Origin: an uncultured delta proteobacterium
GTDB taxonomy: Bacteria; Desulfobacterota; Syntrophobacteria; BM002
NCBI GenBank assembly: GCA_963712115.1
Contig: CAVQGX010000054.1
Coordinates: 1 to 20,925, forward strand
DNA length: 20,925 nt
Reading direction: 5' to 3'
Positions 1,261 to 19,935 of the stretch are shown one piece after another. Every line of letters begins with the position of its first letter. Within the stretch, counting starts at the first letter, position 1. Position numbers and translations under genes: made by a program. Below the pieces are notes generated by a model. It had not been told where the DNA came from and searched no databases. It saw nothing but the letters and a program-made list of their open reading frames with translations.

Positions 1261-1341
1261 ATGTTACGTCTTGGCATAGATTACGGTGGTAAATTCACTG
1301 GCTCCGCTTGTTTATACTCCCAACATCTTGTGCCAGAGTAA
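1261..1341 (+). pseudogene. 5' remnant of a RuvC-I-motif nuclease gene (Cas9/IscB-like), MLRLGIDYGGKFTG, fused to repeat linker
   Basis: GAGGA RBS at 1248-1252 and ATG at 1261. Reads MLRLGIDYGGKFTGSACLYSQHLVPE*. Sequence from ~1295 onward is the linker repeat. Confidence 0.55.
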
Positions 1342-1351
1342 ATTCCAGGGG

Positions 1352-1380
1352 AGTGTGAATTAAGGGATGTTATCTAAATT
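1352..1380. repeat. R-type 11-7-11 putative recombination site R1
   Basis: AGTGTGAATTA-AGGGATG-TTATCTAAATT; box CCCAACATCTTGTG at 1319-1332, 19 bp upstream. Confidence 0.85.
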
Positions 1381-1640
1381 TCTATAGTGATCGAAGAGCG
1401 TCTGCTTAATTCATTAACCGAAAAGTCACATCTCCTTTTCATACCTTCAATCCTGGCCGATATTAAGCCTAGGCGGAAGATTCCAACTTCTTAATCACAA
1501 AATATTTGATTATGATTGGTATGATTTCACAACTTTGTCCTGAACATAGTCAGTTACATGTATTTGTTTTGCTTTGATATTTGGTTTTCTGCCAAGATAA
1601 ATGGAGCAGAACAGGTATTTCTCGAATTGGATTGGTTGCA

Positions 1641-1669
1641 TTGACCATCTGCGTCAGCGTGCTTATGCT
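1641..1669 (+). promoter_or_regulatory. Putative sigma70 promoter
   Basis: TTGACC-N17-TATGCT upstream of the 1780 ORF. Confidence 0.45.
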
Positions 1670-1779
1670 TTTTATGAATTCTAATCTATCACATCCTTTG
1701 CGCTGTATTTTGACTCTGAGGACAACTATGGGTAGCTGACTCCTACAGGTAACTTATTACTGCGGTTCGAAATAAGGGT

Positions 1780-2772
1780 TTGGACAAAATGGAAACGACG
1801 AATTCGAATGGATCTCCAAAAAAGAGTTCAAAACTGACATCCTTGGGCAAACGGATCATCCTGATACTTCTTGGCTTTTTGCTTATTTGGCCACTCACAG
1901 TCGGTATTTACTGGCTGATTTACCGCGGATATACTCTGATCGATCCTGCGCGGTTCCCGGAACTCGACAGTGCTGTTCAAAGCGTCCTCAACGAAACGAC
2001 GCCGGAATCCGGTGAGCCACACAAAGGGGCTGCTTTGTCCGCAGCCATTAGGAATCGCCTCCAGGAGGAAATGTCTTCGCCTCTCGGCTGGTCGGTCAAC
2101 GACTTGTTGATCTCACCCACTCGCTGGCTGGACAATCGCGCCAACCGCCAGCGCGGCACCATTTTTGCCACCCGAATGCTGGTGAACTTTTACCCCACCC
2201 ACCTGGCCAAATACGGCTCGGCAGATGCGGAAAACCCACAACTGAAGGAAGCCAGGGAAAAACGGTTTGCGTTCACAGAAGACAGCTGGTGGTTTCCGTC
2301 AACGGAAAAAGAATACCGTAAAGGCATCGCGTCACTGAAAAAGTATGAAGCCGATCTTCTCGAAAATAAGGCGGTGTTCAATATGCGCTCGGACGACATG
2401 TACGACCTGCTGGTGTACATCACCGGCAAACAATTTCTCGATCAGCCCCTAGGATTGCTGGTACAGACTAACGCCGAGGTTCCCTACTTCGAATTGGACG
2501 ACCGGATCTACTACACCCAGGGGGTCGCGCTGGTTCTGCGCGACTTCTTGACGGTCCTCTTTCACCTTTATCCTGAGATTGGAGAGAAAGGCGGGGCTGA
2601 AAATATTCGCATCGCCATGCGGGATCTGCATCAAATATGCACCTTTGACCCCCTGATCGTGCTAAGGGGCTCCCATGACTCGATTATGGCGGACCACCGT
2701 GGCAAGATGGCCCGGTACCTGATCTCCGTTCGCGAACGTCTCAATGACGTTGCCCAGTCAATCCGACGCTAA
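1780..2772 (+). CDS. DUF2333-like membrane-anchored protein
   Basis: N-terminal TM helix. Motifs GWSVND..P..WLDN, SWWFPSTE.EY..GI, DDRIYYTQG and PLIVLRGS...ADH..KMARY recall DUF2333. Start may be ATG 1789. Confidence 0.7.
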   Translation: MDKMETTNSNGSPKKSSKLTSLGKRIILILLGFLLIWPLTVGIYWLIYRGYTLIDPARFPELDSAVQSVLNETTPESGEPHKGAALSAAIRNRLQEEMSSPLGWSVNDLLISPTRWLDNRANRQRGTIFATRMLVNFYPTHLAKYGSADAENPQLKEAREKRFAFTEDSWWFPSTEKEYRKGIASLKKYEADLLENKAVFNMRSDDMYDLLVYITGKQFLDQPLGLLVQTNAEVPYFELDDRIYYTQGVALVLRDFLTVLFHLYPEIGEKGGAENIRIAMRDLHQICTFDPLIVLRGSHDSIMADHRGKMARYLISVRERLNDVAQSIRR

Positions 2773-2823
2773 TCCATTTCGGTCAGCCCTGCCGCGGCGA
2801 AGAAACCTTAAAGGATGAATTCA

Positions 2824-2852
2824 CTCAAAGTTTATATACTTTAATCTGCACT
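2824..2852. repeat. L-type site L2 (outer arm degenerate)
   Basis: CTCAAAGTTTA-TATACTT-TAATCTGCACT; box TACAATATCTTGGC at 2872-2885, 19 bp downstream. Confidence 0.7.
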
Positions 2853-2900
2853 GCTGCCTTTGAGACCAAGCTACAATATCTTGGCTTAGACTAAGAAAAT

Positions 2901-2926
2901 GCGGAGTCCCTGGCTCCGCTTTTTTT
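2901..2926 (+). terminator. Repeated linker terminator hairpin
   Basis: GCGGAG-TCCCTGG-CTCCGC + T7. Confidence 0.8.
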
Positions 2927-2959
2927 CTCAACATCTTGTGCCAATATAAATCCCAGAAG

Positions 2960-2988
2960 AGTGTGAATTAAAGGATGTAATTTAAACT
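2960..2988. repeat. R-type site R2
   Basis: AGTGTGAATTA-AAGGATG-TAATTTAAACT; box CTCAACATCTTGTG at 2927-2940, 19-bp gap. Confidence 0.85.
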
Positions 2989-3617
2989 TTTAGAGCTATC
3001 AAGGCGAGTTTATATTGCTCATCAATATATGTAATCGATCTTGCCCCTATACGATGCCCTTAATCGTTGCGAAATATTTTCATCAGCCCATGGCTTAGTC
3101 TATACTCTCCAACCCAAGGTAATCTGCCTGCACCACTGCAAAGGATCAGTCAAGTCACCAAAATCTCGCACATATTGACAGAAGAAATAATGTGGAAATG
3201 TAATTTTATACGAAATCGAAAGAAAATAGCAGCAAAACCAAGATATCGTTGAACCGCTAAATTGCATGTATTATGGGTATCATATAGATATTTCTCCATT
3301 TCTTAAACATTATAAAAAATATAAATATCTTGGTATGTTACAGGGCTGTCAAAAAAATTCTCCTTGATTCCCCAAGGGTTACTCTCTGTGCATAGCTTCT
3401 GTAGATAAAATTTATTTTTTGGCGCAAACTGCATTTGAAGGATTTAGAATATTGGCTTATCTTTCAAAATTATCTTTTCGTGTGGTGCCAATTCCGAGGG
3501 CGGATATAGCTGGCTCAGAATTTATCATAAAGGGGGGTGATAAAGGGCAATTCATTGCTGCATAGAGATCTTATGAGTTTGTGATTGTAAACAAAGCAAG
3601 CAAAGAGGGAGAGGAAC

Positions 3618-4001
3618 ATGAAAAGAGCGACTATCATTTCTTTAGCTTTGATTCTGGGTTTTTGTCTGGTAGCAGGTGCTTTTGCTGCAGATAAAGATGC
3701 TATTCAGAAACAAGTAGATGAAATTGTTGTATCCATCGATAGCGGAAAAAAAGCTGATGACTTTAAGGATGCAGCACAAAATAAGCCCAACTATGTATTT
3801 ATAATGGAAGAAGGTGGACAGATGTTGGTGCATCCGTCATTAGTTGGGCAAAGCCTTAAGGATAAAGCAGAGCCTGTTTATAATGAGTGTAGTAAAGCGA
3901 CTACCGATGGTACATGGGTTGAATATGAGTGGCAAGGGAAGCAAAAAAACACTTATGTAAGAAAAACCAAGGATGGTTTAATAGTCGGAAGTGGATACTG
4001 A
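3618..4001 (+). CDS. Secreted single Cache-domain-like protein
   Basis: GGAGAGGA RBS; signal peptide ending AFA; YVFIM..G.MLVHP.LVG, GTWVEYEW, KNTYVRK and IVGSGY motifs. Confidence 0.75.
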   Translation: MKRATIISLALILGFCLVAGAFAADKDAIQKQVDEIVVSIDSGKKADDFKDAAQNKPNYVFIMEEGGQMLVHPSLVGQSLKDKAEPVYNECSKATTDGTWVEYEWQGKQKNTYVRKTKDGLIVGSGY

Positions 4002-4056
4002 GAGTAATTCCTTTTTGTCTAAGTATCTTGTGTCAAAGGTTATAGAGAAATCGTGG

Positions 4057-4098
4057 TGTCGCCCATAGAAATTATTGTTTTATGGGCGACATTTTTTT
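4057..4098 (+). terminator. Intrinsic terminator
   Basis: TGTCGCCCATA / TATGGGCGACA perfect 11-bp stem + T7. Confidence 0.8.
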
Positions 4099-4172
4099 CA
4101 TATGGAGCCTCTTTCAAGAACTCAAAACTCCTGAAGATCATCGTCCTCAGATGACTCGAAGGTAAAGACTGC

Positions 4173-4236
4173 TTCTAACCACTTAATGCAGCGGACGCGG
4201 TAAATTGTACCGCAAGATTTCACCCTTCCGTTAGCA
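4173..4236 (+). other. Degenerate integron attC site
   Basis: TTCTAAC, then ATGCAGCGGAC, internal GCGGTA/TACCGC stem, ends GTTAGCA; L' side pairs poorly. Confidence 0.55.
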
Positions 4237-4289
4237 TATTAAGTCCGCATCGGTATCCCGAAAGTTCACATACCTTAAGAGCCTGTTCA

Positions 4290-5765
4290 CTAATGCCTCA
4301 AGTTTCTTGATCTATCAGAGTTTATTCCATATTTCTGGATGATACTCTGACCATTTTGATCTACTTTATTCTTTTCCAATACTATTCGATAACCCATTTC
4401 GTCCAATATAACGTGGTATTTCCCTCCATAACTCTCAAACGCATTTACTAAATCATTCATGTTGGCAATTCTTTTACCATTAACATAATATACAATTTTG
4501 TCATGTACGTTATGGTAGCCCACGTTAATCTCGTCAGCAAGAACTTTTGACAAGATAACCATTTCTCTCTTGTCTTCGGTGGGTTGTCCATAATAGTATT
4601 GATTTAACAAATTTTTTGAAGCCTCATGATGCCACTTATCGCCCCACAACTTTAGGAAGTTTACCGTCAATGGCTGAAATACCAACCCCCCCAGAATAAA
4701 ATATGTGGGGGCCACGTCATATTGTTCATACGGAACTAATTGGAGAGGATTCGAAGGCTTGGATAGTTTCACCCTAAGGGTTATTACTTTATTCTTTCTT
4801 AATACCTCAAACTCTACTGTATCATTGATATATTTATTTTGAATTAGATAATTAAAAGATGTCCTTTCCCCCTCCCTAAACTCTATTGTCCCATCGTTTT
4901 CGACAGTTTTTCCGTCAATTGAAAGAATAATATCTTCTGTTTCAAGTATCCCCTTGGCTGGGGAATCGGGATATATATTGTATACCAACACCCCAGTCTG
5001 TTGGGCGGTCATATCATATTTGCGCTTTATGTCTGGATTCTCCATATCTTGCCAGGCTATCCCAAGATTTGGTATTCCGTCATAGTTGCCGTCTCTTATG
5101 TCAGTCAAAAAATGGTCAACGATAGGAGTTGGAACCATATAGCCAATATTCTCAGCATCGTTCCCTGATCTAGACTGAAAGGCTACTCCAACTAGTTTGT
5201 CACCCCTGATTACAGGGCCACCACTATTACCAGAGTTAATTGCAGCATCAATTTGGCAAGCTAATAAATCGGCCATGCTGTGGGTATATTTACGATTCTC
5301 AACTCTAGAAACAACCCCTTCGGTAATGGACAATTTATCGCCACCTTCTGGAAAGCCGTAAACTGCAACCTTATCCCGAATTTCTGCCAGAGATCCGATG
5401 TCGATGGGTTTGACACCAGAGAAGAATGAATCATCATTTACTTTGAGGATAGCAAGGTCACACTCGTGAGCTACAACTTCTACTTCTGCTGTATACTTCT
5501 TCGCCTCTCCTGCTCTCCTCACCTGAATAAATGTCTGATTTGCTACCACGTGGGCATTCGTTAGGATTCTTTTCCCTCTAATAATACATCCAGAGCCGTT
5601 TCGCGAATTTTGCCCCATCTTTTGCCAGGGCTCATAGTAGTCATATTTATTAGTCACAGTGTATATTTTTACCACTGCATCTTTTATATATCTATTTGCC
5701 CATGCAGTTGGGGTACTAGCGAAACTTAAGATCATCACCAAAAAAATCATTTTGCTGCATTTCAT
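4290..5765 (-). CDS. Deg/HtrA-family trypsin-like serine protease with PDZ domains (Do-like 2 type)
   Basis: Signal peptide; catalytic triad motifs TNAHVV, CDLAIL, DAAINSGNSGGP; PDZ motif PDSPAKGIL...DIILSIDG. Confidence 0.92.
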   Translation of the reverse strand: MKCSKMIFLVMILSFASTPTAWANRYIKDAVVKIYTVTNKYDYYEPWQKMGQNSRNGSGCIIRGKRILTNAHVVANQTFIQVRRAGEAKKYTAEVEVVAHECDLAILKVNDDSFFSGVKPIDIGSLAEIRDKVAVYGFPEGGDKLSITEGVVSRVENRKYTHSMADLLACQIDAAINSGNSGGPVIRGDKLVGVAFQSRSGNDAENIGYMVPTPIVDHFLTDIRDGNYDGIPNLGIAWQDMENPDIKRKYDMTAQQTGVLVYNIYPDSPAKGILETEDIILSIDGKTVENDGTIEFREGERTSFNYLIQNKYINDTVEFEVLRKNKVITLRVKLSKPSNPLQLVPYEQYDVAPTYFILGGLVFQPLTVNFLKLWGDKWHHEASKNLLNQYYYGQPTEDKREMVILSKVLADEINVGYHNVHDKIVYYVNGKRIANMNDLVNAFESYGGKYHVILDEMGYRIVLEKNKVDQNGQSIIQKYGINSDRSRNLRH

Positions 5766-5860
5766 TATCGCCTCCAGTGGGAGGAGTATTTCCTATTGAA
5801 CAAAGATAGCGTCACTCTTGGCAAAACAGGACTATTGTGATGAAACAACCAATGAATCTA

Positions 5861-5876
5861 AGCAAAAGCAATGCCA
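5861..5876 (-). promoter_or_regulatory. sigma54 -24/-12 promoter for the protease
   Basis: Minus strand TGGCATTGCTTTTGCT, GG and GC 12 bp apart, ~95 bp upstream of the start. Confidence 0.6.
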
Positions 5877-6037
5877 AGTTCAACGTTGAGATTCTGCTTT
5901 TATATAAGCCTACTTTAAAAAGACCATATATGGTGGGGCAATCTTACCAATTGAGGGATAATCAATGAGGTTTTCTATGAGGTATGATCTTATCAGAATT
6001 TGATCTTTAACACCGAACTCCGCATCAGCCCTCTGAA

Positions 6038-6066
6038 AGTTTGCATTTCATACTTTAATCCACACT
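6038..6066. repeat. L-type site L3
   Basis: AGTTTGCATTT-CATACTT-TAATCCACACT; box CACAACATCTGGGA at 6086-6099, 19-bp gap. Confidence 0.85.
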
Positions 6067-6130
6067 TTCCCTTTTGAGACCCGACCACAACATCTGGGAT
6101 TGTTGAGCTATTCATTTTTCAAAGAGCAAT

Positions 6131-6157
6131 GCGGAGCTATTGCGGCTCCGCTTTTTT
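6131..6157 (+). terminator. Repeated linker terminator hairpin
   Basis: GCGGAGC-TATTGCG-GCTCCGC + T6. Confidence 0.8.
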
Positions 6158-6219
6158 GTTGGCTTAGACAAAAACGGGAATCTAAAGAATTATGGAAAAG
6201 AACCCTGCCATAAATTGAT

Positions 6220-6235
6220 TGGCATAGACCTTGCG
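6220..6235 (+). promoter_or_regulatory. sigma54 -24/-12 promoter
   Basis: TGGCATAGACCTTGCG. Confidence 0.6.
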
Positions 6236-6245
6236 CTACCCACAC

Positions 6246-6317
6246 TTGTAGGCTAAAGCTTCTCCTTTACCACATATCACGAAAAGGGTTGCTATTAAGG
6301 CAATAGCAGCCCTTTTT
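6246..6317 (+). ncRNA. Candidate ~70-nt sigma54-dependent sRNA
   Basis: Lies between the sigma54 promoter and the terminator at 6282-6317; contains CTTCTCCTTT (anti-SD-like); 5' end inferred from promoter spacing. Confidence 0.4.
6282..6317. terminator. Bidirectional intrinsic terminator
   Basis: AAAAGGGTTGCTATT-loop-AATAGCAGCCCTTTTT. Confidence 0.75.
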
Positions 6318-6477
6318 GCTCTACGAAGGCTAGGGTTAGGCCATTGGACTGTGTACACAAAAGTATGAATTTACATACCGCAAAAGTGATTGAAAGACGA
6401 CAATATCCTAGAGTCAAGCTTGTAGATACCGTCTTCGGAAAAACCATTTAAGCAATCATTGGCGAGGGAGGTGCAAA

Positions 6478-6870
6478 ATGCTTGTGAAAAGAAAACAACA
6501 AATATCTCCTAGAGCTGACCTTAGATGGCAAGTGAACGCAGTAACTCCTAAAGGTCCATTAGAGGGAGTAACAAAAGATATTGGTACAAGAGGAGCTTAT
6601 GTATGTTGCGCTAGACCGCTGAGACTAAATGAAGTTTTTCATATGTCCATAAATGCCCCCGAAAAATCCCTTCATGTCAAAGCCGAAGTTGTCTGGTCGA
6701 ATAAATACGGCCCTGATGACGAAATTAACCCTCGTGGTATGGGTGTCCGCTTCCTAAAGATTTCATCTCAAGACCGAAAATTCATTGCTAAAGAGGTGAG
6801 CCAGCAGAGTGATGACGCACCAGAATTTGAAAAATTAGAAACTCTTACCCTGGAAGTGGGCGATGACTAA
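6478..6870 (+). CDS. PilZ-domain protein
   Basis: GGGAGG RBS; KDIGTRGAY (DxSxxG-like), AEVVW and GMGVRFLKIS motifs. Confidence 0.85.
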   Translation: MLVKRKQQISPRADLRWQVNAVTPKGPLEGVTKDIGTRGAYVCCARPLRLNEVFHMSINAPEKSLHVKAEVVWSNKYGPDDEINPRGMGVRFLKISSQDRKFIAKEVSQQSDDAPEFEKLETLTLEVGDD

Positions 6871-6974
6871 CTGAGGTTTTTCTTTGACTCCCTCTCTTGC
6901 TCTTATGTTCTCCTATTCCATAAAGTGAATCCTACCCTCGCCGTTAAAGACCTATTCGTTTTTGAGAGAACACT

Positions 6975-6998
6975 GCGGAGTCACTGGCTCCGCTTTTT
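6975..6998 (+). terminator. Repeated linker terminator hairpin
   Basis: GCGGAG-TCACTGG-CTCCGC + T5, preceded by the shared TATTCGTTTTTGAGAGAACACT motif. Confidence 0.8.
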
Positions 6999-7164
6999 AA
7001 TTTGCATTGGGTTTGCATTTGTGAGTCCGTGGGGTGAGCGTGGGGTTCATCCTGCTGGTGTGCAGATGCCCCCATCGGTTTGGTAACTGTCTGATGGGGG
7101 TAACTTTGTGACTCGCATTGACTTGATCATCCACAGCATTTGGTACCAGATTATATTTCAAGCG

Positions 7165-7189
7165 AGCGTAAATTAAGGGAAACCACAGT
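7165..7189. repeat. R-type site R4 (4 bp missing)
   Basis: AGCGTAAATTA-AGGGA..AACCACAGT; box CACAGCATTTGGTA at 7132-7145, 19-bp gap. Confidence 0.7.
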
Positions 7190-7229
7190 CCGCTCCCACC
7201 CCCCATGCTGCCTACTTACTGAAGTAGCG

Positions 7230-7245
7230 TGGCATAGGCTTTGCA
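7230..7245 (+). promoter_or_regulatory. sigma54 -24/-12 promoter
   Basis: TGGCATAGGCTTTGCA, 34 bp upstream of ATG 7280. Confidence 0.65.
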
Positions 7246-7279
7246 CTTCGAATCAGGCTAAAAATCGGAGGTTCCTGTC

Positions 7280-8525: not shown

Positions 8526-8578
8526 AACGCCCTTTTTTGACCACCTCTCCATGCAGTATTATGCTCTCCAAGGCGGAA

Positions 8579-8607
8579 AGTGGTGATTAAGGGATGTAAT
8601 CCGCAGT
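8579..8607. repeat. R-type site R6
   Basis: AGTGGTGATTA-AGGGATG-TAATCCGCAGT; only 53 bp from L5. Confidence 0.85.
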
Positions 8608-8820
8608 TTTGCACTGGCCCTTTTCTTGCAAAAGTTTGTCTGCGTATTTCAGGTTGTGATCAGAGCGGATATAGGTTTCGGTGTTTTCCGTTTTTAATAT
8701 TGCAGATGTTATCGAATAAATAACTGTAATTTCTCATAGTTTACGATACAGACATGAGACTTTCCGCATTATAAAGCGGATAATACGCCGTATAATCTAA
8801 GATTAGGCAGCAAAGATGAA

Positions 8821-9885
8821 ATGACCCAAGCTTCCTCACCTATCAGATTTATCTGCTTCTTGGTAGCCACCCTGTCCGTGTTTACATCCGCCCTGCAGGC
8901 CAACGCCGGAGTGCGGATCGCCATGGCCGACGGCCTCGAACCGGGGCGGCACTTCCTGGTGACCACTACGATCTTCAACCGCGGGTTTGATGGTTTCTTT
9001 ACAGAGCGACTCGACAGTTGCTTTTTGACCTCAGGCGAGAGGAAAGATATCACCTTACTGGCGGTCAAGCCGTTTTTCTATGATCGTGTCTCCGCCGACG
9101 CTGTTCATCCCGGCTTTTATGGCGATAGCACTAAATCCTATAAGGTACCGTTTGCACTGCGTACCGTAGTCCTGCCGACCCTGCGCCCACCTAGTTGGCG
9201 GTACTTTTTGGACAGCGGGGCGCCGATTAGGAAAGGCGGTGTTGGCATCACCCCCAGTAACGTCAACGACCACTTCCATTTAATCTTGCACCAATACCTG
9301 CCAGCCTTTGATCGCGCCGGCATCAAGGAGGACTTGTGTCAATACTTGCCACTTCTGCATGAAATGGCTGCCTTTGCTCACAGCGAACAAGCCTACGAAA
9401 ACAGCAAAGCCACCTTGGACCGACTCTCTGGCACGACCCAAGAGAAATATGTTGAATCCCTGAAAATAACCGTGGAACGATATCGGAGGGAGTTGGATCA
9501 GCGGCTCAAGGAGATCAAAGCATGGTTGGCACTGGAACAGAGCAAGCGGGCGCCGATGCACGACTGGATGGTTCATTTCCATAAGGCCGATTATGTCTAC
9601 CGAGAGATGATGAATGATTCAGACCACAAACGGATACAGCAATGGTTGGAAAAGAACGGTGATTTTCCCCGCGAGGCAACGCTGCAGTGGACCAACGCCG
9701 AAACCGGTCTACGCTACATTTTGCACCTCAAAACCGGTATCACTGGGAAATGGGGCTCCGGTTACAGTACTGTCTTAACCGTCGATCTTAATCCGATTCT
9801 CGGGTTAGAAAACCATCAGCGGTATCTGAAGAAGAGCTATCCTGATTTCTATCGAAATGCAGGGGGAATGTGGAAATTAAAATAG
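8821..9885 (+). CDS. Hypothetical secreted protein (integron cassette gene)
   Basis: 354-aa ORF, signal peptide ending ANA, followed by attC. Confidence 0.7.
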   Translation: MTQASSPIRFICFLVATLSVFTSALQANAGVRIAMADGLEPGRHFLVTTTIFNRGFDGFFTERLDSCFLTSGERKDITLLAVKPFFYDRVSADAVHPGFYGDSTKSYKVPFALRTVVLPTLRPPSWRYFLDSGAPIRKGGVGITPSNVNDHFHLILHQYLPAFDRAGIKEDLCQYLPLLHEMAAFAHSEQAYENSKATLDRLSGTTQEKYVESLKITVERYRRELDQRLKEIKAWLALEQSKRAPMHDWMVHFHKADYVYREMMNDSDHKRIQQWLEKNGDFPREATLQWTNAETGLRYILHLKTGITGKWGSGYSTVLTVDLNPILGLENHQRYLKKSYPDFYRNAGGMWKLK

Positions 9886-9922
9886 GGTGTGGGGTTAAAA
9901 AAGAGAAATAGACGGCGAGAAT

Positions 9923-9982
9923 GCTTGACAAAACTCTGCGGCGGATGGCTTACAGCCCCGCCGCCTAGCTTGGCCGTCATGC
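9923..9982 (+). other. Integron attC site (variant GAC/GTC core)
   Basis: GCTTGAC...GCGGCGGATGGCTTACAGCCCCGCCGCC...GTCATGC, 60-bp imperfect palindrome between co-oriented ORFs. Confidence 0.7.
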
Positions 9983-10003
9983 ATTCAGAGAGATTCGGCA
10001 GAC

Positions 10004-10636
10004 ATGGCAATGAATGACAGCCCTAAAGATCGAAGGGGGTACGCAGCGCACGCAGCGTGGGCAGTGACTGCCGTCGCCGTGTCCCTTCTCATGATATTCA
10101 CAATAAACAAGGGGCATCCTCCTTTTATAGTCTTCCTTCCGCTGGTTATTCTCGTCTGGGTTGTGGGGCACCTTGCTATCTGGGGCGTCGCGTGGCTGGT
10201 TGTCAAGGGTCGGCGTGTTGCTAGCGGAACCCGAAGTGAAGGCAGATCTTGGCCAGTTGGCCTCAGGCTCGCTGTAATTGGTACAGGCGTTCTCACATCG
10301 GTAGGAGTGTTTCAAATTCTAGTGACAGGTTACCTGGGCAGGTTGTATCCATATCACTATGCTAATCTTTGGGCGCTCATGCTGGTCATAAAGCTTGTTC
10401 ACGCAGCGTGTTTTGTGGGACTGCTGTTACGACAGCGGTGGTCACGTCACATGAGCGCGCTGCTAGCGGTTGGGTGGGCGATGTTATTGGCGTCGCAGAT
10501 ATCAGAGCATTTGCCTCCAAGGGCTCCCTCGAACATCGCAGAATTAATGATCGCCTTCGGGATAATGGTGTTTCTATTCATACTCGGTCTTCACCTTGTT
10601 GTTTCACGCGAAGTGAAGTCGTTTCTGAAGAATTAA
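10004..10636 (+). CDS. Hypothetical multi-pass membrane protein (cassette gene)
   Basis: About six hydrophobic segments; flanked by attC sites. Confidence 0.75.
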   Translation: MAMNDSPKDRRGYAAHAAWAVTAVAVSLLMIFTINKGHPPFIVFLPLVILVWVVGHLAIWGVAWLVVKGRRVASGTRSEGRSWPVGLRLAVIGTGVLTSVGVFQILVTGYLGRLYPYHYANLWALMLVIKLVHAACFVGLLLRQRWSRHMSALLAVGWAMLLASQISEHLPPRAPSNIAELMIAFGIMVFLFILGLHLVVSREVKSFLKN

Positions 10637-10640
10637 GAAT

Positions 10641-10721
10641 GCATAACAAGCGCATCGAGGGGACCGACCGCAAGTGGCGATTTTCTTACTTGCACCCGGC
10701 CCCTCAGGCGCAACGTTATGC
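10641..10721 (+). other. Integron attC site (canonical)
   Basis: GCATAAC...GTTATGC perfect R''/R' pair; internal GAGGGG/CCCCTC and GCAAGT/ACTTGC stems; 81 bp. Confidence 0.9.
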
Positions 10722-10731
10722 ATAAGAGATT

Positions 10732-11220
10732 ATGAAATTCCTCATCAGATCAATAGCATTTGTGATAGGAGGATATTGTTTATATAAATTGTTATCAACC
10801 TGGCGAGCGATAGTATATTTCTTTGCAGACTTCTTTCGAGGGCCTGTTTCACCAGACATCGAACCGTGGTTTGCAATCCCATTGACACTGCTGACGATCT
10901 TGCTACTCTTCGCAGGAGTTGTTTCCTCATATGGTCTCTTCCATTTATGGCAGTGGGGTAGAAAGTTAGCCATCGCTGTATTGGGTCTCGACTTCCTCTT
11001 GCGATTGTACGGCGCCATAAATGTGTCGACTTACTCACTGCGCCATCCGGAACCCCCGCCCATTCCAAAAGATGCCGTAATCGTTGGGACCATCAGCATG
11101 TGGCCGTCCTACATTACCGGGATCATCAGCCTTATTTTCATAACCATATTAACGCGAAATTCAATTAGAGATGAGTTCAATGGAAAACCCATCGAACAGA
11201 TTGATGCGGCAAATGCATAA
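10732..11220 (+). CDS. Hypothetical membrane protein (cassette gene)
   Basis: About four TM segments; stop codon TAA lies inside the next attC R'' box GCATAAC (11215-11221). Confidence 0.75.
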   Translation: MKFLIRSIAFVIGGYCLYKLLSTWRAIVYFFADFFRGPVSPDIEPWFAIPLTLLTILLLFAGVVSSYGLFHLWQWGRKLAIAVLGLDFLLRLYGAINVSTYSLRHPEPPPIPKDAVIVGTISMWPSYITGIISLIFITILTRNSIRDEFNGKPIEQIDAANA

Positions 11221-11236
11221 CCCTTATAAGGCCTCC

Positions 11237-11747
11237 CCTTGTCAAGGGATAAAGGTATCCTGGTAACGAAAAAATGTTTTTTCGTTAGAACGCCTGATGC
11301 TGCCGTAACAAGGTTCAGCGTTCTGACTTGGTTTCAAAAGTTCAGGTTTACAGAAGCCGTGTCTGCACCAAACACCTATCGACGCTCATGCCGCTCTATG
11401 TGAGGCAAGCGGCGTTGGGCCTGCTGGATAAAGGCCCGGACCTAGAAATATATCCGTACCCGCATACCGGCCCGATCAAATCGACGGGATCATGGTAATT
11501 ACCAGTCCCAGTTAGAGCGGGGCTCGGGGACGGGGCAGAACACGGAAGCCGTTGTTCTGACATCATCGGTATAGAAAGATAGGGGCCAGGATGTGGATCC
11601 AATCAACTCGTAGGGACTCAGGGTTATCTCCTACGGTACCGTTTGCACTCTCTGGTGCAGTCGGTTGGACTTTTTCAGGTTCCTTGACGAGGTTGTCCCT
11701 TGGCGTTCCAGTTAGACGAATGGGCTCACACACCCTGCCCCGAGCTG
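11237..11747 (-). ncRNA. IS1111 3' non-coding region, likely source of the seekRNA/bridge RNA
   Basis: Position matches the IS1111 subfamily; several hairpins and short matches to the insertion junctions; exact RNA ends unknown. Confidence 0.55.
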
Positions 11748-12794
11748 TTATGTTTCGTTGAAAAAGACTTTCATACTGAATGGTTCCTTTCGTTTGAGCA
11801 TGAAGTAGGCGGCGCGGCCGATTTTGTGAGCCAGGATTGAGAGAGCCTTTCCTTTGCCGTATTTGCTGACCAGCCGGGCGTGGTAGTGTTGCGCTTGCTC
11901 GTTTCCTCTCAGGAAGAGACAAGCCGCTTCAGAGAAAGCCCACTTGAGGTGAGCGTTTCCGATCTTGCTATTTTTGGTACCGAACTTTTTTCCAGCTGAT
12001 TCTCTGGGGCATTTGACCAAGCGGCAATAGGAGACGAAGTCCTGGACTCTGGGAAACCGTTTGATATCGTGGATTTCATAGAGGAGAATGAGACCGAGGA
12101 TTTTGCCGACTCCGGGGATACTTCGCAAACGATACCAGCTGTAGGCATCGTCCACTTTGGCCTTTTTGACGATATAGAGTTCGAGGTCATTGAGGAGCTG
12201 GTCGTAGAAATCGAGTAGTTGAAGATCGACCTCGATGCTTTTGCTAACGGAAGGGTCGGGGAAGTGTTCGGCAACACCTTCACGGTTTGCCTTGTAGGCG
12301 AGTTTTTTGCCAAACTCTGGTAGATTGTATTGGCTGTTGGTGTTTTGGATATGGGCGAGGAGCTCAGAGCGTTTACGCATGAGGTGGTTTCTGCGGCGCA
12401 GCAGATCCCGGGTTGAGCGCATCTTTCTGGGGTAGACGTAGGCCATGGGGATGTTGCCTCCGCGAAGCAGGGTAGCGATCTTCTTGGAGTCGATTTTGTC
12501 GTTTTTACTTTTGCCCCCATGGATAGCCTTCATGTAGAGGGCGTGGCCGAGGACGAAAGGGATCTTCTCTTTGGCGCAGAGATCAGCCAACCAGTACCAG
12601 ACGAACATGCATTCGACGGCGACAACGATATCCTCCCGAAAGGGCTCGATGGCTTTGAGCAATGCCTCTGCTGAGGCTTTCCTGTTACGGTGGAACACTG
12701 TTTTGCCTTGCTCGTCCACAATGCAGATGTACATGGAGCGGGCGTGAAGGTCGATTCCGCAGTAATAGTTGTGTTGTTTGGTGTAGAATCTCAT
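11748..12794 (-). CDS. IS110-family DEDD transposase/recombinase
   Basis: GIDLH, VAVEC, KNDKIDS (DEDD), LRSIPGVG, ESAGK, KIGNAHLKWA motifs; AAAGGAGG RBS. Confidence 0.95.
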   Translation of the reverse strand: MRFYTKQHNYYCGIDLHARSMYICIVDEQGKTVFHRNRKASAEALLKAIEPFREDIVVAVECMFVWYWLADLCAKEKIPFVLGHALYMKAIHGGKSKNDKIDSKKIATLLRGGNIPMAYVYPRKMRSTRDLLRRRNHLMRKRSELLAHIQNTNSQYNLPEFGKKLAYKANREGVAEHFPDPSVSKSIEVDLQLLDFYDQLLNDLELYIVKKAKVDDAYSWYRLRSIPGVGKILGLILLYEIHDIKRFPRVQDFVSYCRLVKCPRESAGKKFGTKNSKIGNAHLKWAFSEAACLFLRGNEQAQHYHARLVSKYGKGKALSILAHKIGRAAYFMLKRKEPFSMKVFFNET

Positions 12795-12878
12795 TGGGCT
12801 TCCTCCTTTGGTTGAAGATTATGGTTAAGGGACAAACCACATCTTACTATGCCATTGGAGGAGGCCTTAATAAGTATC

Positions 12879-12907
12879 AACTCGCTGCAGTCGGACGGGG
12901 CAAACAG
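12879..12907 (+). other. Remainder of the interrupted attC, left half only
   Basis: AACTCGCTGCAGTCGGACGGGGCAAACAG with no complementary right arm or GTT box before site L7. Confidence 0.7.
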
Positions 12908-12929
12908 TTTCTTTTGATTTTCGGTACTG

Positions 12930-12954
12930 ACTGAAAATTACTTTAATCCACACT
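12930..12954. repeat. L-type site L7 (4 bp missing in spacer)
   Basis: ACTGAAAATTA-CTT-TAATCCACACT; box TACAATATCTTGAT at 12974-12987, 19-bp gap. Confidence 0.8.
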
Positions 12955-13002
12955 TTTCCATTTAAGACCAAGCTACAATATCTTGATTTAAAATTAGAAA
13001 AT

Positions 13003-13028
13003 GCGGAGTCACTGGCTCCGCTTTTTTT
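13003..13028 (+). terminator. Repeated linker terminator hairpin
   Basis: GCGGAG-TCACTGG-CTCCGC + T7. Confidence 0.8.
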
Positions 13029-13064
13029 CTTCTCAACATTTTGTGCCTGAGCAAATCCCAGTAA

Positions 13065-13093
13065 AGTGTGAATTAAGGGATGTAATCTACAGT
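13065..13093. repeat. R-type site R8
   Basis: AGTGTGAATTA-AGGGATG-TAATCTACAGT (arms 8/11 inverted); box CTCAACATTTTGTG at 13032-13045, 19-bp gap. Confidence 0.9.
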
Positions 13094-13420
13094 TTCTCCT
13101 CAGTTGCCTCCAATACTTGATCTCATTTGACACAGTCCACCTAGTTGTCATATCTTAAAAGCAGTTCACGCTCCTTATATTGCTCATCTGCGAGTGACAT
13201 TCTTTTCGTAAAGCATTCACAAGGCAAGTTTCTTTCTCTAGATATATTCAGAACCGCACAGGCCTACCTAAATAAGTAAGGCATTTCTTGTCAGTTGCAT
13301 TGGTTTCTCCATTACTGGTCGTTTATTACTCAGCAACCAGGGAGGTGAGGTGATGGCCGAGGAAAGATATGGACTGACATTGGTGGTTTTGCCAACTTTT
13401 TTATTTTCCGGAGGTGTAAG

Positions 13421-15301: not shown

Positions 15302-15414
15302 TCAGTCAAGAACTTCTTAGAAAAGCTTGTCGACGAAGTGCTCTTTGGATTGTACGCCGAACCCTTTTTTTAATTCGACCCCCCACGTGTAGTAGTATTC
15401 TTTCCAGAGCCAAA

Positions 15415-15443
15415 AGTGTGAATTAAGGGATGTAATACAAAGT
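15415..15443. repeat. R-type site R9
   Basis: AGTGTGAATTA-AGGGATG-TAATACAAAGT; box-like CCCCACGTGTAGTA at 15381-15394, 20-bp gap. Confidence 0.88.
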
Positions 15444-15551
15444 CCGCTCCCAGCCCCTCCATGCTACACACACATTCTCTCCCCGATTGCCCGCCTGTTG
15501 AAGAAATCCACAAATTAAGTCCAAACCCCTACTAAAATGGTAGTTTTTCTA

Positions 15552-15580
15552 TTGACTCTAGCTCGACTCATTCCTATCCT
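15552..15580 (+). promoter_or_regulatory. Putative sigma70 promoter
   Basis: TTGACT-N17-TATCCT. Confidence 0.45.
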
Positions 15581-15779
15581 TTTGACCGAATGTTTTTACT
15601 ACTAACACGGTTATAGGTAACTCGGTTTAGGCATTCTAAAAATATGGATTTTAGGGATATTTTGGACGTGTATTCATAATTCGGCATCAATATTCATTAA
15701 CAAGACTTCACACGTAAAAGTATAAGAAAACATTCTATCCTCGTATTAAACAGGATTTAGCTTCACAAGGAGGTTGAAA

Positions 15780-16670: not shown

Positions 16671-16752
16671 ATGGTAAAGCGGGCTGATTTATTTAATGCC
16701 TCGCAATCAATGAATCGGACGACAATAATCTTCGAACCAAGAAGTCACAGGC

Positions 16753-16789
16753 TTCTAACCATTCGCTGCAGTCGGATGCGGCTAACAGC
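16753..16789 (+). other. Left half of an attC site
   Basis: TTCTAAC-CATTC-GCTGCAGTCGGATGCGGCTAACAGC, similar to the reconstituted 11215/12879 site; no right half. Confidence 0.65.
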
Positions 16790-16805
16790 TTTGTTGATGC
16801 TCTGG

Positions 16806-16825
16806 ACTGTGAATTACATACAACT
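16806..16825. repeat. L-type site L10 (about 9 bp missing)
   Basis: ACTGTGAATTA-CATAC..AACT; box CACAACATATTGGG at 16845-16858, 19-bp gap. Confidence 0.72.
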
Positions 16826-16915
16826 TTTGTTATTTTGAAAAAGCCACAACATATTGGGTCGAACCAAGGAGGAGTATTATCCCCGCCCTGCAGAGCTATT
16901 TATTTTCCAAGAACT

Positions 16916-16940
16916 ATGCGGAGCCGGAACTCCGCATTTC
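16916..16940 (+). terminator. Variant linker hairpin
   Basis: ATGCGGAG-CCGGAA-CTCCGCAT, preceded by GCTATTTATTTTCCAAGAACT. Confidence 0.6.
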
Positions 16941-17133
16941 ATTTTTCGATACCATTTAGCAACACCCAAACTGTCCCAAATTCCTCTGAGGTGGGGATTT
17001 TTCTATTGCCTTCATTTCACATCTCATAAAATTTACTTTCTCAATTGCAAATATTCGCACTTCCTCCTTGCAACTCGCCACGCCTTTTCGTAATTTGACC
17101 AGCGGCGCATCAATTTTACAGTGGTAGAATCTT

Positions 17134-17784
17134 ATGGCCAATCCTGAACACTTGGTTATCCTCAAAAGAGGTGTGCAATTCTGGAACTCTTGGAGGAGCG
17201 AGAATCCGAATACACGTCCTGACTTTAGTGGGGCTGACCTTTCTCAAATCAGCCTGAGGGGAGCATTTCTTGCTAGTGCTAACTTGGAGGGTGCTTCTCT
17301 CGTTTCAGCCGACTTGGAGAAGGCGATTATCTGGGGGGCTAATCTACAGAAGGCAAACCTTCAAACGGCCAATCTTGAGGAAACAGACTTTTTTGAAGCT
17401 AATCTCAAGAGTGTGAATCTTTTGAGAGCCAAAATGCAAAAAGCTGACCTGACAAAAGCGAATCTGCAAGAGGCACTACTTGCTAAGGCTGATCTTGCCT
17501 GGGTGAGGCTCTGGCAGGCTAATTTGAAAGAAGCGGATTTATACAAAGCTAACCTAAAGAAAGCCAATCTTTACGGTGCAAATTTAGAGGGTGCTGACCT
17601 TCTGGAGACTAACTTCACTAGAGCAATTCTTTTAGAAACAAAGCTCAAAGGTGCTTTAAATCTATCTGTTAGACAAATTTCCCAAGCCATGACATTACAC
17701 AAATCTGAGTTGGAAGAAGCCTTAATGGGGAGGCTGCAAGAAGGTTATCCTCATCTTTTGGAAAGGCCAAAGTCTGGAGAGTAG
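17134..17784 (+). CDS. Pentapeptide-repeat protein
   Basis: MANPEHL..LK.GV..WN.WR N-terminus and tandem A(D/N)Lxx repeats. Confidence 0.92.
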   Translation: MANPEHLVILKRGVQFWNSWRSENPNTRPDFSGADLSQISLRGAFLASANLEGASLVSADLEKAIIWGANLQKANLQTANLEETDFFEANLKSVNLLRAKMQKADLTKANLQEALLAKADLAWVRLWQANLKEADLYKANLKKANLYGANLEGADLLETNFTRAILLETKLKGALNLSVRQISQAMTLHKSELEEALMGRLQEGYPHLLERPKSGE

Positions 17785-17803
17785 CGGATAGGTATGCAAG
17801 TAC

Positions 17804-18925
17804 TATATACAGCGTCATAAAGAATTGCGCATAATACTGCCTTCTGGTATAGTAGATATCGGAAGGAGGGAGCCATGCGCAAGCTTGAGATCAAAGATGC
17901 AGAGATCATTCGATTGGCAGTGCAAGATGAAATTCTGCGATCCGAGGAGTCGCGATATGACCATCGCCTGCATGGCATACTTTTGGTCTGCAGCGGCTTC
18001 AGTTGTTCCGAGGTGGCAGAGCTCTTCGGGCGCAGTCGACGCACGATTCAGTACTGGGTGCGCCGTTTTGAGCAGAGCGGTTTTGCAGGACTGGAGGAGG
18101 TTCCCCGTTGTGGACGTCCACCAGTGCTGAGCGAAGCTCTGTTTCAAGACGTTGGCAAAGATCTTCGCCGTTCGCCTTTTGAGTTTGGTTATACTCAGAA
18201 CCTGTGGGACGGAAAGCTTCTCAGTCATCACTTAGCTCAGATCTACGGGGTGGAGCTCAAGCTACGTCAATGCCAGCGCCTGTTCCACCAGTTGGGATTT
18301 CGCCGGCGCAAGCCGCGTCCCCTCATTGCCAAAGCCGATCCGCATGCGCAACGAAATTATAAAAAAACTCAGCCTCCTGGCCAGAAGAGACGACGTTGAC
18401 CTGTGGTTCGAAGACGAATGCCATTTCCAGCAACACGGTTCGCGCTGTACAATGTGGGTACCTCCAGAGGATGTAGATCCTGTGGTTTTGCATGCACCTA
18501 CAAGGAAAAACGTTGGAGTATTTGGTGCAGTTTGTACGGCAGACGGACGTCTGACCACCGATCGCGCTGAGAAGTTCAATGCGGAGACATTCCTTTCTTT
18601 CTTACAACAACTGGTGCGCCGTCGCCGCAAGGGCCGCAAGATGGTTGTCGTTTTGGATAATGCCCGCTGGCATCGTGCCAAACTTCTGCAGCCGTGGTTG
18701 AAGAAACATCGTAAACATCTCCGACTGGACTTTCTGCCTCCCTACAGCCCGGAACTGAACGCTATTGAACGAGTGTGGAAGCTGACGCGCCGGCTCCGCA
18801 CCCATAATCGTTACTTCCCCCTCTTGGATGATCTGGTGCAGACCGTATTCGATCAGTTCGAGTCCTGCGCGAACCCAACGAAACCTTACGTCGATTATGC
18901 GCAATCATTTAAGACGCTATATATA
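17804..18925 (+). mobile_element. IS630-family insertion sequence (coordinates include flanking TA)
   Basis: 32-bp inverted ends 17804-17835 / 18894-18925 with 4 mismatches, ending in TATA. Confidence 0.92.
17875..18399 (+). CDS. IS630 transposase orfA (HTH domains)
   Basis: GGAGG RBS; EVAELFGRSRRTIQYWVRRF HTH and GRP motif; A7 tract at 18361-18367. Confidence 0.88.
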   Translation: MRKLEIKDAEIIRLAVQDEILRSEESRYDHRLHGILLVCSGFSCSEVAELFGRSRRTIQYWVRRFEQSGFAGLEEVPRCGRPPVLSEALFQDVGKDLRRSPFEFGYTQNLWDGKLLSHHLAQIYGVELKLRQCQRLFHQLGFRRRKPRPLIAKADPHAQRNYKKTQPPGQKRRR

Positions 18926-18967
18926 AAACCAAAATCATGCATCTGCCCTATTTACAGAGTCAGTTAA
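18326..18967 (+). CDS. IS630 transposase orfB (DDE domain), probably with a frameshifted C-terminus
   Basis: WFEDE, VLDNARWH, LPPYSPELNAIERVW; this frame runs past the right IR. Confidence 0.85.
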   Translation: MPKPIRMRNEIIKKLSLLARRDDVDLWFEDECHFQQHGSRCTMWVPPEDVDPVVLHAPTRKNVGVFGAVCTADGRLTTDRAEKFNAETFLSFLQQLVRRRRKGRKMVVVLDNARWHRAKLLQPWLKKHRKHLRLDFLPPYSPELNAIERVWKLTRRLRTHNRYFPLLDDLVQTVFDQFESCANPTKPYVDYAQSFKTLYIKPKSCICPIYRVS

Positions 18968-19121
18968 CTTGTTGTATTCTCATTAAAAAGTCATCCATAC
19001 CTCTGATTATATCTATGCCTATAAAAATATTGTGTTTAATATCAGATGTTTGGAAGAAACTATTGTATGCCAACTGTTTGCTGATAAGCATAACTCAAGC
19101 CACAAGGAAGAGGTATAGACA

Positions 19122-19751
19122 ATGAAAAGGATCTTATCAATTCTGGTGGTTATCGCGCTGGGAGTCTTGTTATTGGCCGGAAATGCGAGCGCACTGGGGA
19201 TTGATATTTCGGCGACTGTAAACCCAAATTGGAACGATAGCTGGAATGATGTTACTTTAACGGGGACCGCCCTCTACAGTCTTTACGTTGATTCCACCAG
19301 TGCTTATGGTGCCAATGTATTCACTGTCACTTTTGAAAATGACATTTTTGCATCACTAACGAATGGTGACCTGATATCCCCGGGCGGCTGGACTTTATAC
19401 TATTATCCTGCCCCTAATATGTACAGTGAACATATGCTCGAGGTCGCTTATGGCGGATCTGATGTGCTTGAGCCGGGAGAAACACCACCTGTTTCCTTCT
19501 CTGTTGACTACACATTGTTCTCCGCGGACCAGTTTAGCCAGGCCTCTGGGTCGGGATGGGCCTGGAATGAGGGTGGCCGTTGGCAACAGTCAGTCAGCGC
19601 AACCAATAATAACGTCTCGCTCGGACCATTTGGAAATCCAAGCGGTGGCACCTCAACAGCCATGACACCCGAACCCGCCAGCATGCTTCTGCTTGGAACC
19701 GGCCTAGTTGTAGCTGGACTTGTGGGGTATAGAAGAAGGTCCAAATCGTAA
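19122..19751 (+). CDS. PEP-CTERM sorting-domain protein
   Basis: Signal peptide ending ASA; C-terminal TPEPASMLLLGTGLVVAGLVGYRRRSKS. Confidence 0.93.
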   Translation: MKRILSILVVIALGVLLLAGNASALGIDISATVNPNWNDSWNDVTLTGTALYSLYVDSTSAYGANVFTVTFENDIFASLTNGDLISPGGWTLYYYPAPNMYSEHMLEVAYGGSDVLEPGETPPVSFSVDYTLFSADQFSQASGSGWAWNEGGRWQQSVSATNNNVSLGPFGNPSGGTSTAMTPEPASMLLLGTGLVVAGLVGYRRRSKS

Positions 19752-19779
19752 CTTTTCTAATTCGATCTGTAGGGTCTAG

Positions 19780-19810
19780 AAGGTAGACTTAGAAATGGGT
19801 CTGCCTTTTT
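19780..19810 (+). terminator. Intrinsic terminator
   Basis: AAGGTAGACT/GGTCTGCCTT stem + T run. Confidence 0.6.
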
Positions 19811-19818
19811 ATTTGGAA

Positions 19819-19842
19819 AGTAAAGATTACATACTGCACACT
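19819..19842. repeat. L-type site L11 (5 bp missing)
   Basis: AGTAAAGATTA-CATACT..GCACACT; box CACAACATCTAGGG at 19862-19875, 19-bp gap; downstream linker resembles 6067-6165. Confidence 0.78.
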
Positions 19843-19906
19843 TTCCCCCTTGAGAACCCACCACAACATCTAGGGCTGTGGGGATATTCATTTTTCAAAG
19901 AGCATT

Positions 19907-19935
19907 AGCGGGGCTATTGCGGCTCCGCTTTTTTT
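19907..19935 (+). terminator. Repeated linker terminator hairpin
   Basis: AGCGGGGC-TATTGCG-GCTCCGCT + T run. Confidence 0.78.

Follow-up and report, generated by a model that had tools for sequence, protein, structure and literature searches.

Putative Xer-type gene module arrays with two spacer classes in the chromosomes of an uncultured genus of Desulfobacterota

The stretch of DNA studied here, referred to as the window, is the entire contig C54 (CAVQGX010000054.1; 20,925 bp, 45% G+C) of an uncultured member of the Desulfobacterota from a lineage of sulfate reducers in marine sediments, whose metagenome-assembled genome (MAG), G000, comprises 4.9 Mb on 70 contigs. A first-pass annotation described twelve related intergenic sites in the window and proposed that they form a gene-shuffling platform built on sites of the tyrosine recombinase type. 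We arrive at a more specific reading. The sites belong to chromosomal Xer-type arrays of gene modules, which are bounded by dif-like cores of the tyrosine recombinase type (11-bp arm, 7-bp spacer, 11-bp arm), and these cores are most likely used by the host recombinases XerC and XerD. The probability of this reading is estimated at roughly 0.55.

The cores belong to effectively two spacer classes, R (AGGGATG) and L (AAGTATG). Segments between two cores with their left arms inward are called C modules and segments between two cores with their right arms inward D modules. The compact C modules between an L and an R core are called connectors.

Evidence for site-specific recombination

All pairs among 371 unique site windows from G000 and the fetched loci were compared for breakpoints, a flank being regarded as shared if at least 95% identical over 60 nt. 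In eleven pairs the inner flank is shared and the outer flanks are unrelated; their cores are identical over positions 1-19, the first difference being at position 20 or 23. In another 14 pairs the outer flank is shared and the inner flanks are unrelated; here the left arms differ, and no difference is found at positions 16-19. Two of these 14 are hybrids of an R and an L site, which differ also at spacer positions 13 and 15, the spacer staying with the left arm. The sequence switch is located between core positions 15 and 20 in 25/25 strict pairs, 23 of them with identical spacers and two of them the R/L hybrids.

No sign of target duplication was found at the compact connectors, as none of 24 is flanked by a direct repeat of at least 4 nt and none of the 15 whose ends are not both TA by a 2-nt repeat. 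The same outer flank is joined to short connectors in some copies and to long ones in others, and in two cases to the L end in one copy and to the R end in the other, which a simple insertion model does not predict. Because all 25 switches fall inside the core and target duplications are missing, the data point to site-specific recombination and not to transposition. Together with the essentially single spacer length of 7 bp, these results support the shuffling platform of the first-pass annotation. Genome-wide scatter of the sites combined with target duplications had been named there as a finding that would speak against it; the scatter is present, the duplications are absent.

It was considered whether the compact connectors might be non-autonomous elements, either miniature inverted-repeat transposable elements (MITEs) or doublets of repetitive extragenic palindromes (REPINs), inserted at a preferred palindromic target, with the genes between them being incidental. 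The connectors are imperfect palindromes of 97-153 bp with terminal inverted repeats of about 55 nt, they occur in two discrete sizes, fold somewhat better than shuffled sequences (median z -2.1 for the short and -3.2 for the long class) and are scattered in many clusters. REPINs, whose repeats also flank a single-copy gene for a REP-associated tyrosine transposase (RAYT), and bacterial interspersed mosaic elements (BIMEs) are likewise intergenic inverted-repeat doublets of about 100 bp present in many copies, and a RAYT is indeed encoded in G002, one of the sister genomes (NF047646, 82.8 bits, cut-off 80). It lies at positions 3747-4721 of locus L101 (G002:C1:611000-619000) and is fused to a DnaA C-terminal-like domain. 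However, the 33-bp inverted repeat on both sides of this RAYT is a different one, unrelated to the L/R cores, the 8-kb locus contains no core at up to 3 mismatches, and G000 has no close orthologue, the best tblastn match being 27% identical. The RAYT/REPIN reading was rejected on these grounds. A MITE that duplicates TA was rejected as well, as duplications are missing. Neither kind of element accounts for an outer flank that occurs with different connector types, including the two pairs with an L end against an R end, nor for the 56 segments between direct R-R or L-L sites that lack a complete connector. No autonomous element with these ends was found, nor a common transposase in the larger C modules that could serve as a partner. 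We consider this explanation improbable.

Contigs from four metagenome runs of sediment or estuary samples can be aligned through a connector and R13065, the R site at position 13065 of the window. The alignments stop at 13095/13096, and beyond this point the contigs run into many different sequences. Such loose ends were counted for 26, 6, 9 and 43 contigs with an agreement of about 0.5, and an example exists also in another genome. These joints represent other connector copies that map to two window sites and give no evidence of excision at this locus; bins without coverage are uninformative.

Structure of the core

The core consists of a well conserved left arm (AGTGTGrATTA), the 7-nt spacer and a looser right arm (TAATnTnnAnT). 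A search of G000 with a degenerate 18-mer at up to 3 mismatches gave 180 cores, 115 of class R, 63 of class L and 2 unclear. When only the arms were searched, 171 matches had a 7-nt spacer in comparison to 5-23 for the lengths 3-6, 8 and 9, and a control with reversed arms gave 4; the spacers recovered in that way were AGGGATG (71), AAGTATG (42) and 38 reverse readings of the same cores. The right-arm positions 24, 27 and 29 lie outside of all search patterns, are nevertheless informative (0.6-1.2 bits) and mirror the left arm, so that the dyad can be regarded as real.

Conservation extends inward from each core for about 32 nt, up to a box of about 14 nt, Box A, which occupies positions -31 to -18 relative to the left arm in both classes alike. 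Its sequence is CAACATCTTGTGCC at R sites, with the related aCaAgATaTgGTgGC at L sites, and the L and R ends as a whole are related over about 55 nt. Box A is predicted to bind an accessory factor. An integration host factor (IHF)-like reading of the R-side box was dropped due to the misfit of the L-side box.

Cores of both classes repeatedly lack exactly the same 4 nt (ATGT) at the place where exchange is inferred to occur (8 sites). The loci with this deletion are 7165-7189 and 12930-12954 in the window and C3:106106, C4:8644, C5:8118, C14:51436, C31:155025, C39:2081, C60:5409 and C66:29012 in G000. A subfamily of L cores lacks the 5 nt TTAAT, so that CATAC is joined straight to TCCACACT; it is represented in the window at 19815-19848 and has spread to loci upstream of R sites (G000 C18:2324, C29:16273, C60:7270 and C66:22648).

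The sequences just outside of the R sites can be grouped into a small number of leader families that are conserved; examples in the window are 7190-7225 and 15444-15480, and many R sites elsewhere in G000 have such leaders as well. One family starts with AAAGTCCGCTCCCA and extends as far as CCATGCT. In another, an inverted copy of the right arm lies downstream of the site, so that the arm becomes part of a hairpin; this is a subfamily feature, present at 13 of the 114 R sites (control, 2.5%).

Organization of the arrays

In G000 34 C segments with left arms inward and 40 D segments with right arms inward were identified. The C segments comprise 15 of 52-53 bp and 9 of 107-110 bp, and the remainder measure 288-8,874 bp. 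The 107-110 bp class carries a terminator-like hairpin (GCGGAG...CTCCGC) followed by a T run, and the same hairpin is found in the window at 2901, 13003, 6131, 6975 and 19907. The larger C modules contain assorted genes, among them those of IS110 and IS3 insertion sequences (IS), and no enzyme or transposase common to them was found. The D segments have a median length of 1,715 bp and hold 1-3 accessory genes. Between direct repeats lie 56 of the 130 segments (R-R 40, L-L 10), which resemble fused C and D modules.

Class and orientation are tightly linked. Neighbours of the same class are direct in 50 cases and inverted in 2, those of different class inverted in 72 and direct in 2; inverse orientation with alternating C and D modules, as known from dif modules, is thus found for 72/74 different-class neighbours. 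The first-pass annotation was right about the sites themselves, while its picture of one array does not hold, as there are many clusters, both throughout the genome and in each of the sister species, and direct repeats are frequent among neighbours.

The arrays are also polar with respect to the genes. According to crude open reading frame (ORF) calls, the nearest gene is read away from the site at 82 of 111 R sites and toward the site at 48 of 62 L sites, so that R sites are mostly found in front of genes and L sites behind them. R sites lie about 280 bp upstream of gene starts and L sites about 120 bp downstream of gene ends. Such a fixed placement, the terminator-like hairpins in the connectors and the leader families behind the R sites would also suit operators, binding sites of structural proteins or RNA elements that do not recombine at all, the shared flanks being due to ordinary duplication and homologous recombination. 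But a switch at one place inside of a 29-bp core in each of the 25 pairs is unlike homologous recombination between diverged repeats. In addition, the window has no match to an Rfam family, and promoter-like matches are not enriched in it (37 versus 30.9 expected), which leaves a promoter at the R end unsupported. We therefore regard this explanation as very improbable.

Similarity to dif and candidate recombinases

The dif site is identical in G000, G002 and G013 (TAGTCTGATAA TGTATA TTATGTAAACT). The six informative positions of the right arm of the cores (T1, A3, T4, T6, A9 and T11) all agree with the XerD arm of this dif, and the three non-matching positions are all uninformative. The statement of the first-pass annotation that the arms differ from dif therefore needs correction for the right arm. 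Most of the family has this XerD arm in its dif; of five other genomes examined, four share it and G021 differs by one base. Covariation of dif and right arm across lineages is unusable as evidence, since the XerD arm is nearly invariant. Natural Xer sites have central regions of 6-8 bp, among them cer with 11-8-11 geometry, accessory sequences and exchange by XerC only, and the attP of VGJ phage comprises 29 bp (PMC5357621). A 29-bp core with an accessory box is for this reason within the range of known Xer substrates. A second dif-like site with the same XerD arm as dif and the spacer TTAATC occurs in G000 (C49:23178-23199) and in G002 (G002:C1:280948, minus strand). In G002 it lies 8.6 kb from the true dif (G002:C1:289579) in inverted orientation, and it could mark an invertible or Xer-exploiting element at dif.

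For the genus 18 genomes were compared (G000 and 17 sister species), for the order 22 genomes in five genera; all are MAG chromosomes without plasmids or phages. The sites were found in every sister species (17/17). Outside of the genus, a single species from a second genus in the family has them as well, compared to 0/22 other relatives, and reversed-pattern controls gave none. The same site is present on public contigs titled as MAGs of Desulfobacterota from sediments (Desulfobacteraceae, Syntrophobacterales, "Deltaproteobacteria"), three of which are single-contig chromosomes. G002 and G013, each of which is a single contig, contain 30 and 8 sites, respectively, those of G002 including an array of single-gene modules with unrelated cargo.

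G000 has 12 matches to PF00589, the tyrosine recombinase domain. None of them is on C54, which agrees with the earlier observation that no recombinase is encoded in the window. One of the proteins (C62:23741-24634) passes the XerD equivalog model with 375 bits (cut-off 329.6) and another (C30:207931-208920) the XerC equivalog model with 347 bits (cut-off 335). A XerD orthologue is present in 17 of the 18 genomes of the genus, the genome in which it is missing being 61% complete. In G002 and G013 there are two PF00589 matches each, the XerC and XerD orthologues. The first-pass annotation had left the enzyme unidentified; the candidates can now be narrowed, as XerC and XerD are the sole tyrosine recombinases found in these two array-bearing genomes. 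The gene content of these genomes and the likeness of the right arm to dif are circumstantial evidence that XerC and XerD act on the cores. A serine invertase was rejected, as none of five genomes has a match to the Resolvase domain of serine recombinases.

Alternatively, the cores could be true recombination sites of a dedicated recombinase, plasmid-borne, phage-borne or of an unrecognised family, the likeness to dif being convergent or due to shared enzyme ancestry. The 7-bp spacer, the left arm unlike the XerC arm and the copy number that varies among Xer-carrying species would fit such an enzyme, and Box A at its fixed distance suggests a specialised complex. G000 also encodes two paralogous phage-type integrases (C39:10742-11977 and C11:84757 onward, the latter with a stop codon), which lie 0.5-1.4 kb from the last R site and are divergently transcribed. 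However, phage-type integrases of this kind occur in 4/18 genomes and are absent from G005, G009 and G002, of which G005 has 79 and G009 56 sites; they were set aside as the enzyme. G002 and G013, with XerC and XerD alone and no serine recombinase found, as well as the larger C modules, in which no shared enzyme was found, argue in the same direction. We consider a dedicated recombinase unlikely, although it is the strongest competitor of the Xer reading.

Several points weigh against the use of the cores by XerC and XerD in the way proposed here. The left arm agrees with the XerC arm at 3/11 positions in register and at 6/11 if shifted by one base, and the spacer is 7 bp long versus 6 bp in dif here and in the pdif sites of plasmids. 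At up to 1 mismatch, between 2 and 84 sites were counted per genome in species all of which carry Xer, and three sister genera with a near-identical dif (the XerD arm is the same in two of them and has one change in the third) have no sites. Therefore, Xer alone does not explain the spread of the sites. A dedicated enzyme could be carried by plasmids or phages, which MAG chromosomes do not include. A model with a 7-bp stagger does not account for the recurrent exact deletion of 4 nt, and the direction of exchange rests on only two hybrid pairs. One duplicated module loses homology 540 bp inside of the module and not at its R site. Finally, with 56/130 segments between direct repeats, strict alternation of C and D modules is not the rule.

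Proposed mechanism

In the mechanism that we propose for XerC and XerD, each core would be occupied by two recombinase monomers, and the observed switch of homology would result from an exchange of strands where the spacer meets the right arm. Strand exchange would need identity of the spacers, and as the R and L spacers differ at two positions, reactions between R and L should be rare. Because R and L are oppositely oriented, the frequent reactions would be those between direct repeats of one class, either R x R or L x L. An exchange within one class would excise or insert a gene module along with its connector and would cause no inversion. At Xer sites whose spacers are not fully homologous just one pair of strands is exchanged (PMC5357621). 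The two R/L hybrids might go back to a rare event in which exchange was initiated next to the right arm, ATG being common to both classes there, and resolution took place without a second exchange. The long connectors would provide a terminator-like hairpin behind each module.

The sites and modules of the window

All of the twelve sites reported for the window are present at their positions. Seven have intact 11-7-11 cores and five are deletion, half-site or degenerate variants. The 22-mer AGTGTGAATTAAGGGATGTAAT has 5 matches in the window at up to 3 mismatches, compared to 0.00 expected from 100 shuffles. The alternating orientation described for the first nine sites was reproduced; these are followed by R15415 (+), L16806 (-) and L19819 (-). 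The genes bracketed by the sites are unrelated, as had been claimed, and domain matches bear this out. They include genes for CsgG-like, DUF2333, Cache, trypsin/PDZ protease, PilZ, OsmC, MBL-fold, pentapeptide and PEP-CTERM proteins as well as IS110 and IS630 transposases. When the window was compared by blastn with all other contigs of G000 and with the fetched loci, just 8 long matches were obtained, and most window modules are unique.

The first core, R1352 (1352-1380, +), is intact (AGTGTGAATTA / AGGGATG / TTATCTAAATT) and has Box A, CAACATCTTGTGCC, at 1321-1334. L2824 (2824-2852, -) is degenerate, with substitutions in the spacer (AAGTATA) and in the right arm (TAAACTTTGAG). It is separated by a long compact connector of 107 bp (2853-2959, +) from R2960 (2960-2988, +), an intact core with the variant spacer AAGGATG. 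The connector contains the L-side box at 2866-2884, the terminator-like hairpin at 2901-2919 followed by a T run, and the R-side Box A at 2929-2942. The next segment is a D module (2989-6037, +), which encodes a Cache-domain protein (3618-4001, +) and a trypsin/PDZ protease (4290-5765, -). Positions 3519-6081 are 97% identical to C36:23455-26018, where the sequence lies also between R and L sites.

L6038 (6038-6066, -) is intact (AGTGTGGATTA / AAGTATG / AAATGCAAACT) and opens an enlarged C module (6067-7164, +), in which a PilZ gene (6478-6870) is located between terminator-like hairpins at 6131-6151 and 6975-6993. In R7165 (7165-7189, +) the transition from spacer to right arm is shortened by 4 nt (AGCGTAAATTA AGG..GAAACCACAGT). 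L8497 (8497-8525, -) and R8579 (8579-8607, +; left arm AGTGGTGATTA) are both intact and enclose a short compact connector of 53 bp (8526-8578, +), a C module. They are followed by a D module (8608-12929, +) with three ORFs (8821-9885, 10004-10636 and 10732-11220) and a transposase of the IS110 family (11748-12794, -).

In L12930 (12930-12954, -) 4 nt are missing at the junction of spacer and right arm, as in R7165 (AGTGTGGATTA AAG TAATTTTCAGT). A long compact connector of 110 bp (12955-13064, +; L-side box 12968-12985, hairpin 13003-13021, Box A 13034-13047) leads to R13065 (13065-13093, +), which is intact and equals the consensus (AGTGTGAATTA / AGGGATG / TAATCTACAGT). The intact R15415 (15415-15443, +) is a direct repeat of R13065 with no L site in between, and is followed by a conserved leader that is common to R7165. 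L16806 (16806-16823, -) is a half-site, which consists of the right arm TAATTCACAGT and part of the spacer. Its left arm is replaced, and the left half of a classical attC site is located upstream (16757-16782). The last site, L19819 (19819-19842, -), is a core variant without 5 nt, TTAAT, of left arm and spacer. Positions 19832-19934, i.e. the 100 nt after L19819 including the hairpin at 19907-19929, match the sequence after L6038.

An element of the IS630 family (17804-18925, +) with 32-bp terminal inverted repeats and a transposase split over two frames is a passenger outside of the site system. A copy with 98% identity is found at G000 C11:80756-81881 within another array.

Integron cassettes within the arrays

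Classical integron cassettes are nested within the L/R system. In the D module at 8608-12929 each of the three ORFs is followed by a classical attC-like hairpin (9893-9982, 10637-10722 and 11213-11300). G000 has a genuine integron integrase, IntI (TIGR02249, 487 bits), at the start of C27 (C27:1-3303), and next to it lie classical attC cassettes of about 115 bp, which are unlike the L and R cores. Of 10 classical attC left halves in G000, 6 are followed by an L core about 45 nt further on and have no attC right half. These junctions lie at 12876-12954 (attC left half at 12876-12901) and 16757-16823 in the window and at C13:18542, C27:118312, C31:156448 and C42:183943 elsewhere in G000. The attC left half joined to an L core looks like a recurrent junction between two cassette systems.

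These fusions, the attC hairpins in the window, the IntI with its cassettes and the cassette-like polarity raise the question whether the L-R elements are themselves an unusual family of long attC sites that is recombined by the IntI of this genome. However, IntI occurs in 4/18 genomes of the genus and is absent from the array-bearing G002 and G013, and in G000 it adjoins classical attC cassettes and not L/R sites. The cores have none of the AAC...GTT boxes that the classical attC sites of this genome show, and breakpoints are seen at both the L and the R ends, in contrast to the one-ended crossover of attC. The short connector examined is not stable when folded as single-stranded DNA (z -0.6), in comparison to -6.2 for the attC site at 10637-10722. 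The attC reading was rejected due to IntI distribution, boxes, two-ended breakpoints and folding, and it is the least probable of the explanations considered.

Comparison with known systems

The closest counterpart of the arrays described here are the dif modules of Acinetobacter, for which pdif sites, i.e. XerC/XerD sites, are reported on Rep_3/OrfX plasmids and recently also on the Acinetobacter chromosome (PMC13141974, PMC12907356). Adjacent pairs of C and D modules are reported to be excised or inserted together there (PMC13141974). The two systems have in common inversely oriented dif-like bounding sites, an alternation of C and D modules, a likeness to the dif of the host, which here is clear for the right arm, accessory cargo, an exchange apparently limited to sites with the same spacer, and fused modules arising from damaged sites (PMC13141974, PMC12907356). 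In contrast to Acinetobacter, the present arrays are chromosomal, occur in an uncultured genus of Desulfobacterota with up to about 180 sites per genome, and have a 7-bp spacer. Moreover, there are only two spacer classes, and each goes with a single orientation and a single position relative to the genes. Most C modules are no more than miniature connectors of 52-53 or 107-110 bp, which are conserved and contain Box A, frequently together with a terminator-like hairpin, and many neighbours are direct. A literature survey, judged mainly from listings and abstracts, gave nothing similar outside of Acinetobacter.

As in integron arrays, most genes stand alone between imperfect palindromes, are unrelated to each other and point in the same direction, and annotation is often lacking; the repeats likewise form species-wide families that break assemblies. 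In G000 both systems coexist and are nested. Unlike integrons, most genomes have no adjacent integrase, and the cores are of the double-strand type. The cer and psi sites and the attP of integrative mobile elements exploiting Xer (IMEX) resemble the cores in their geometry of 11 + (6-8) + 11 bp with accessory DNA on one side (PMC5357621). They are, however, single sites for dimer resolution or for integration at dif, while here hundreds of sites form cassette arrays, and the accessory DNA of cer/psi-type sites is about 180 bp long compared to the 14 nt or so of Box A.

Implications

As a tentative proposal, the arrays may represent a third natural cassette platform beside integrons and the dif modules of Acinetobacter, one that is chromosomal, genus-wide and run by the housekeeping XerCD or by an unknown partner that redirects them. 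Two incompatible spacer classes in opposite orientation around every module would allow paired R x R and L x L reactions to excise, insert or swap modules without inversion, and the connectors would give each module a terminator and a site for an accessory protein. As attC halves are fused to L cores, the platform would also have taken up integron cassettes, which would make it a case of an integron and a second cassette system intermingling.

If this is true, the arrays would be a natural counterpart of engineered recombinase-mediated cassette exchange. They would explain why these MAGs break into contigs of low G+C content, and their many natural recombinant junctions are material for studying the order of strand exchange and the rules for spacers. 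It is still debated how dif modules move, and so far they have been described as a peculiarity of Acinetobacter plasmids. A second, independent system of this kind would make the evolution of a dimer-resolution site into a means of cassette exchange a general evolutionary solution.

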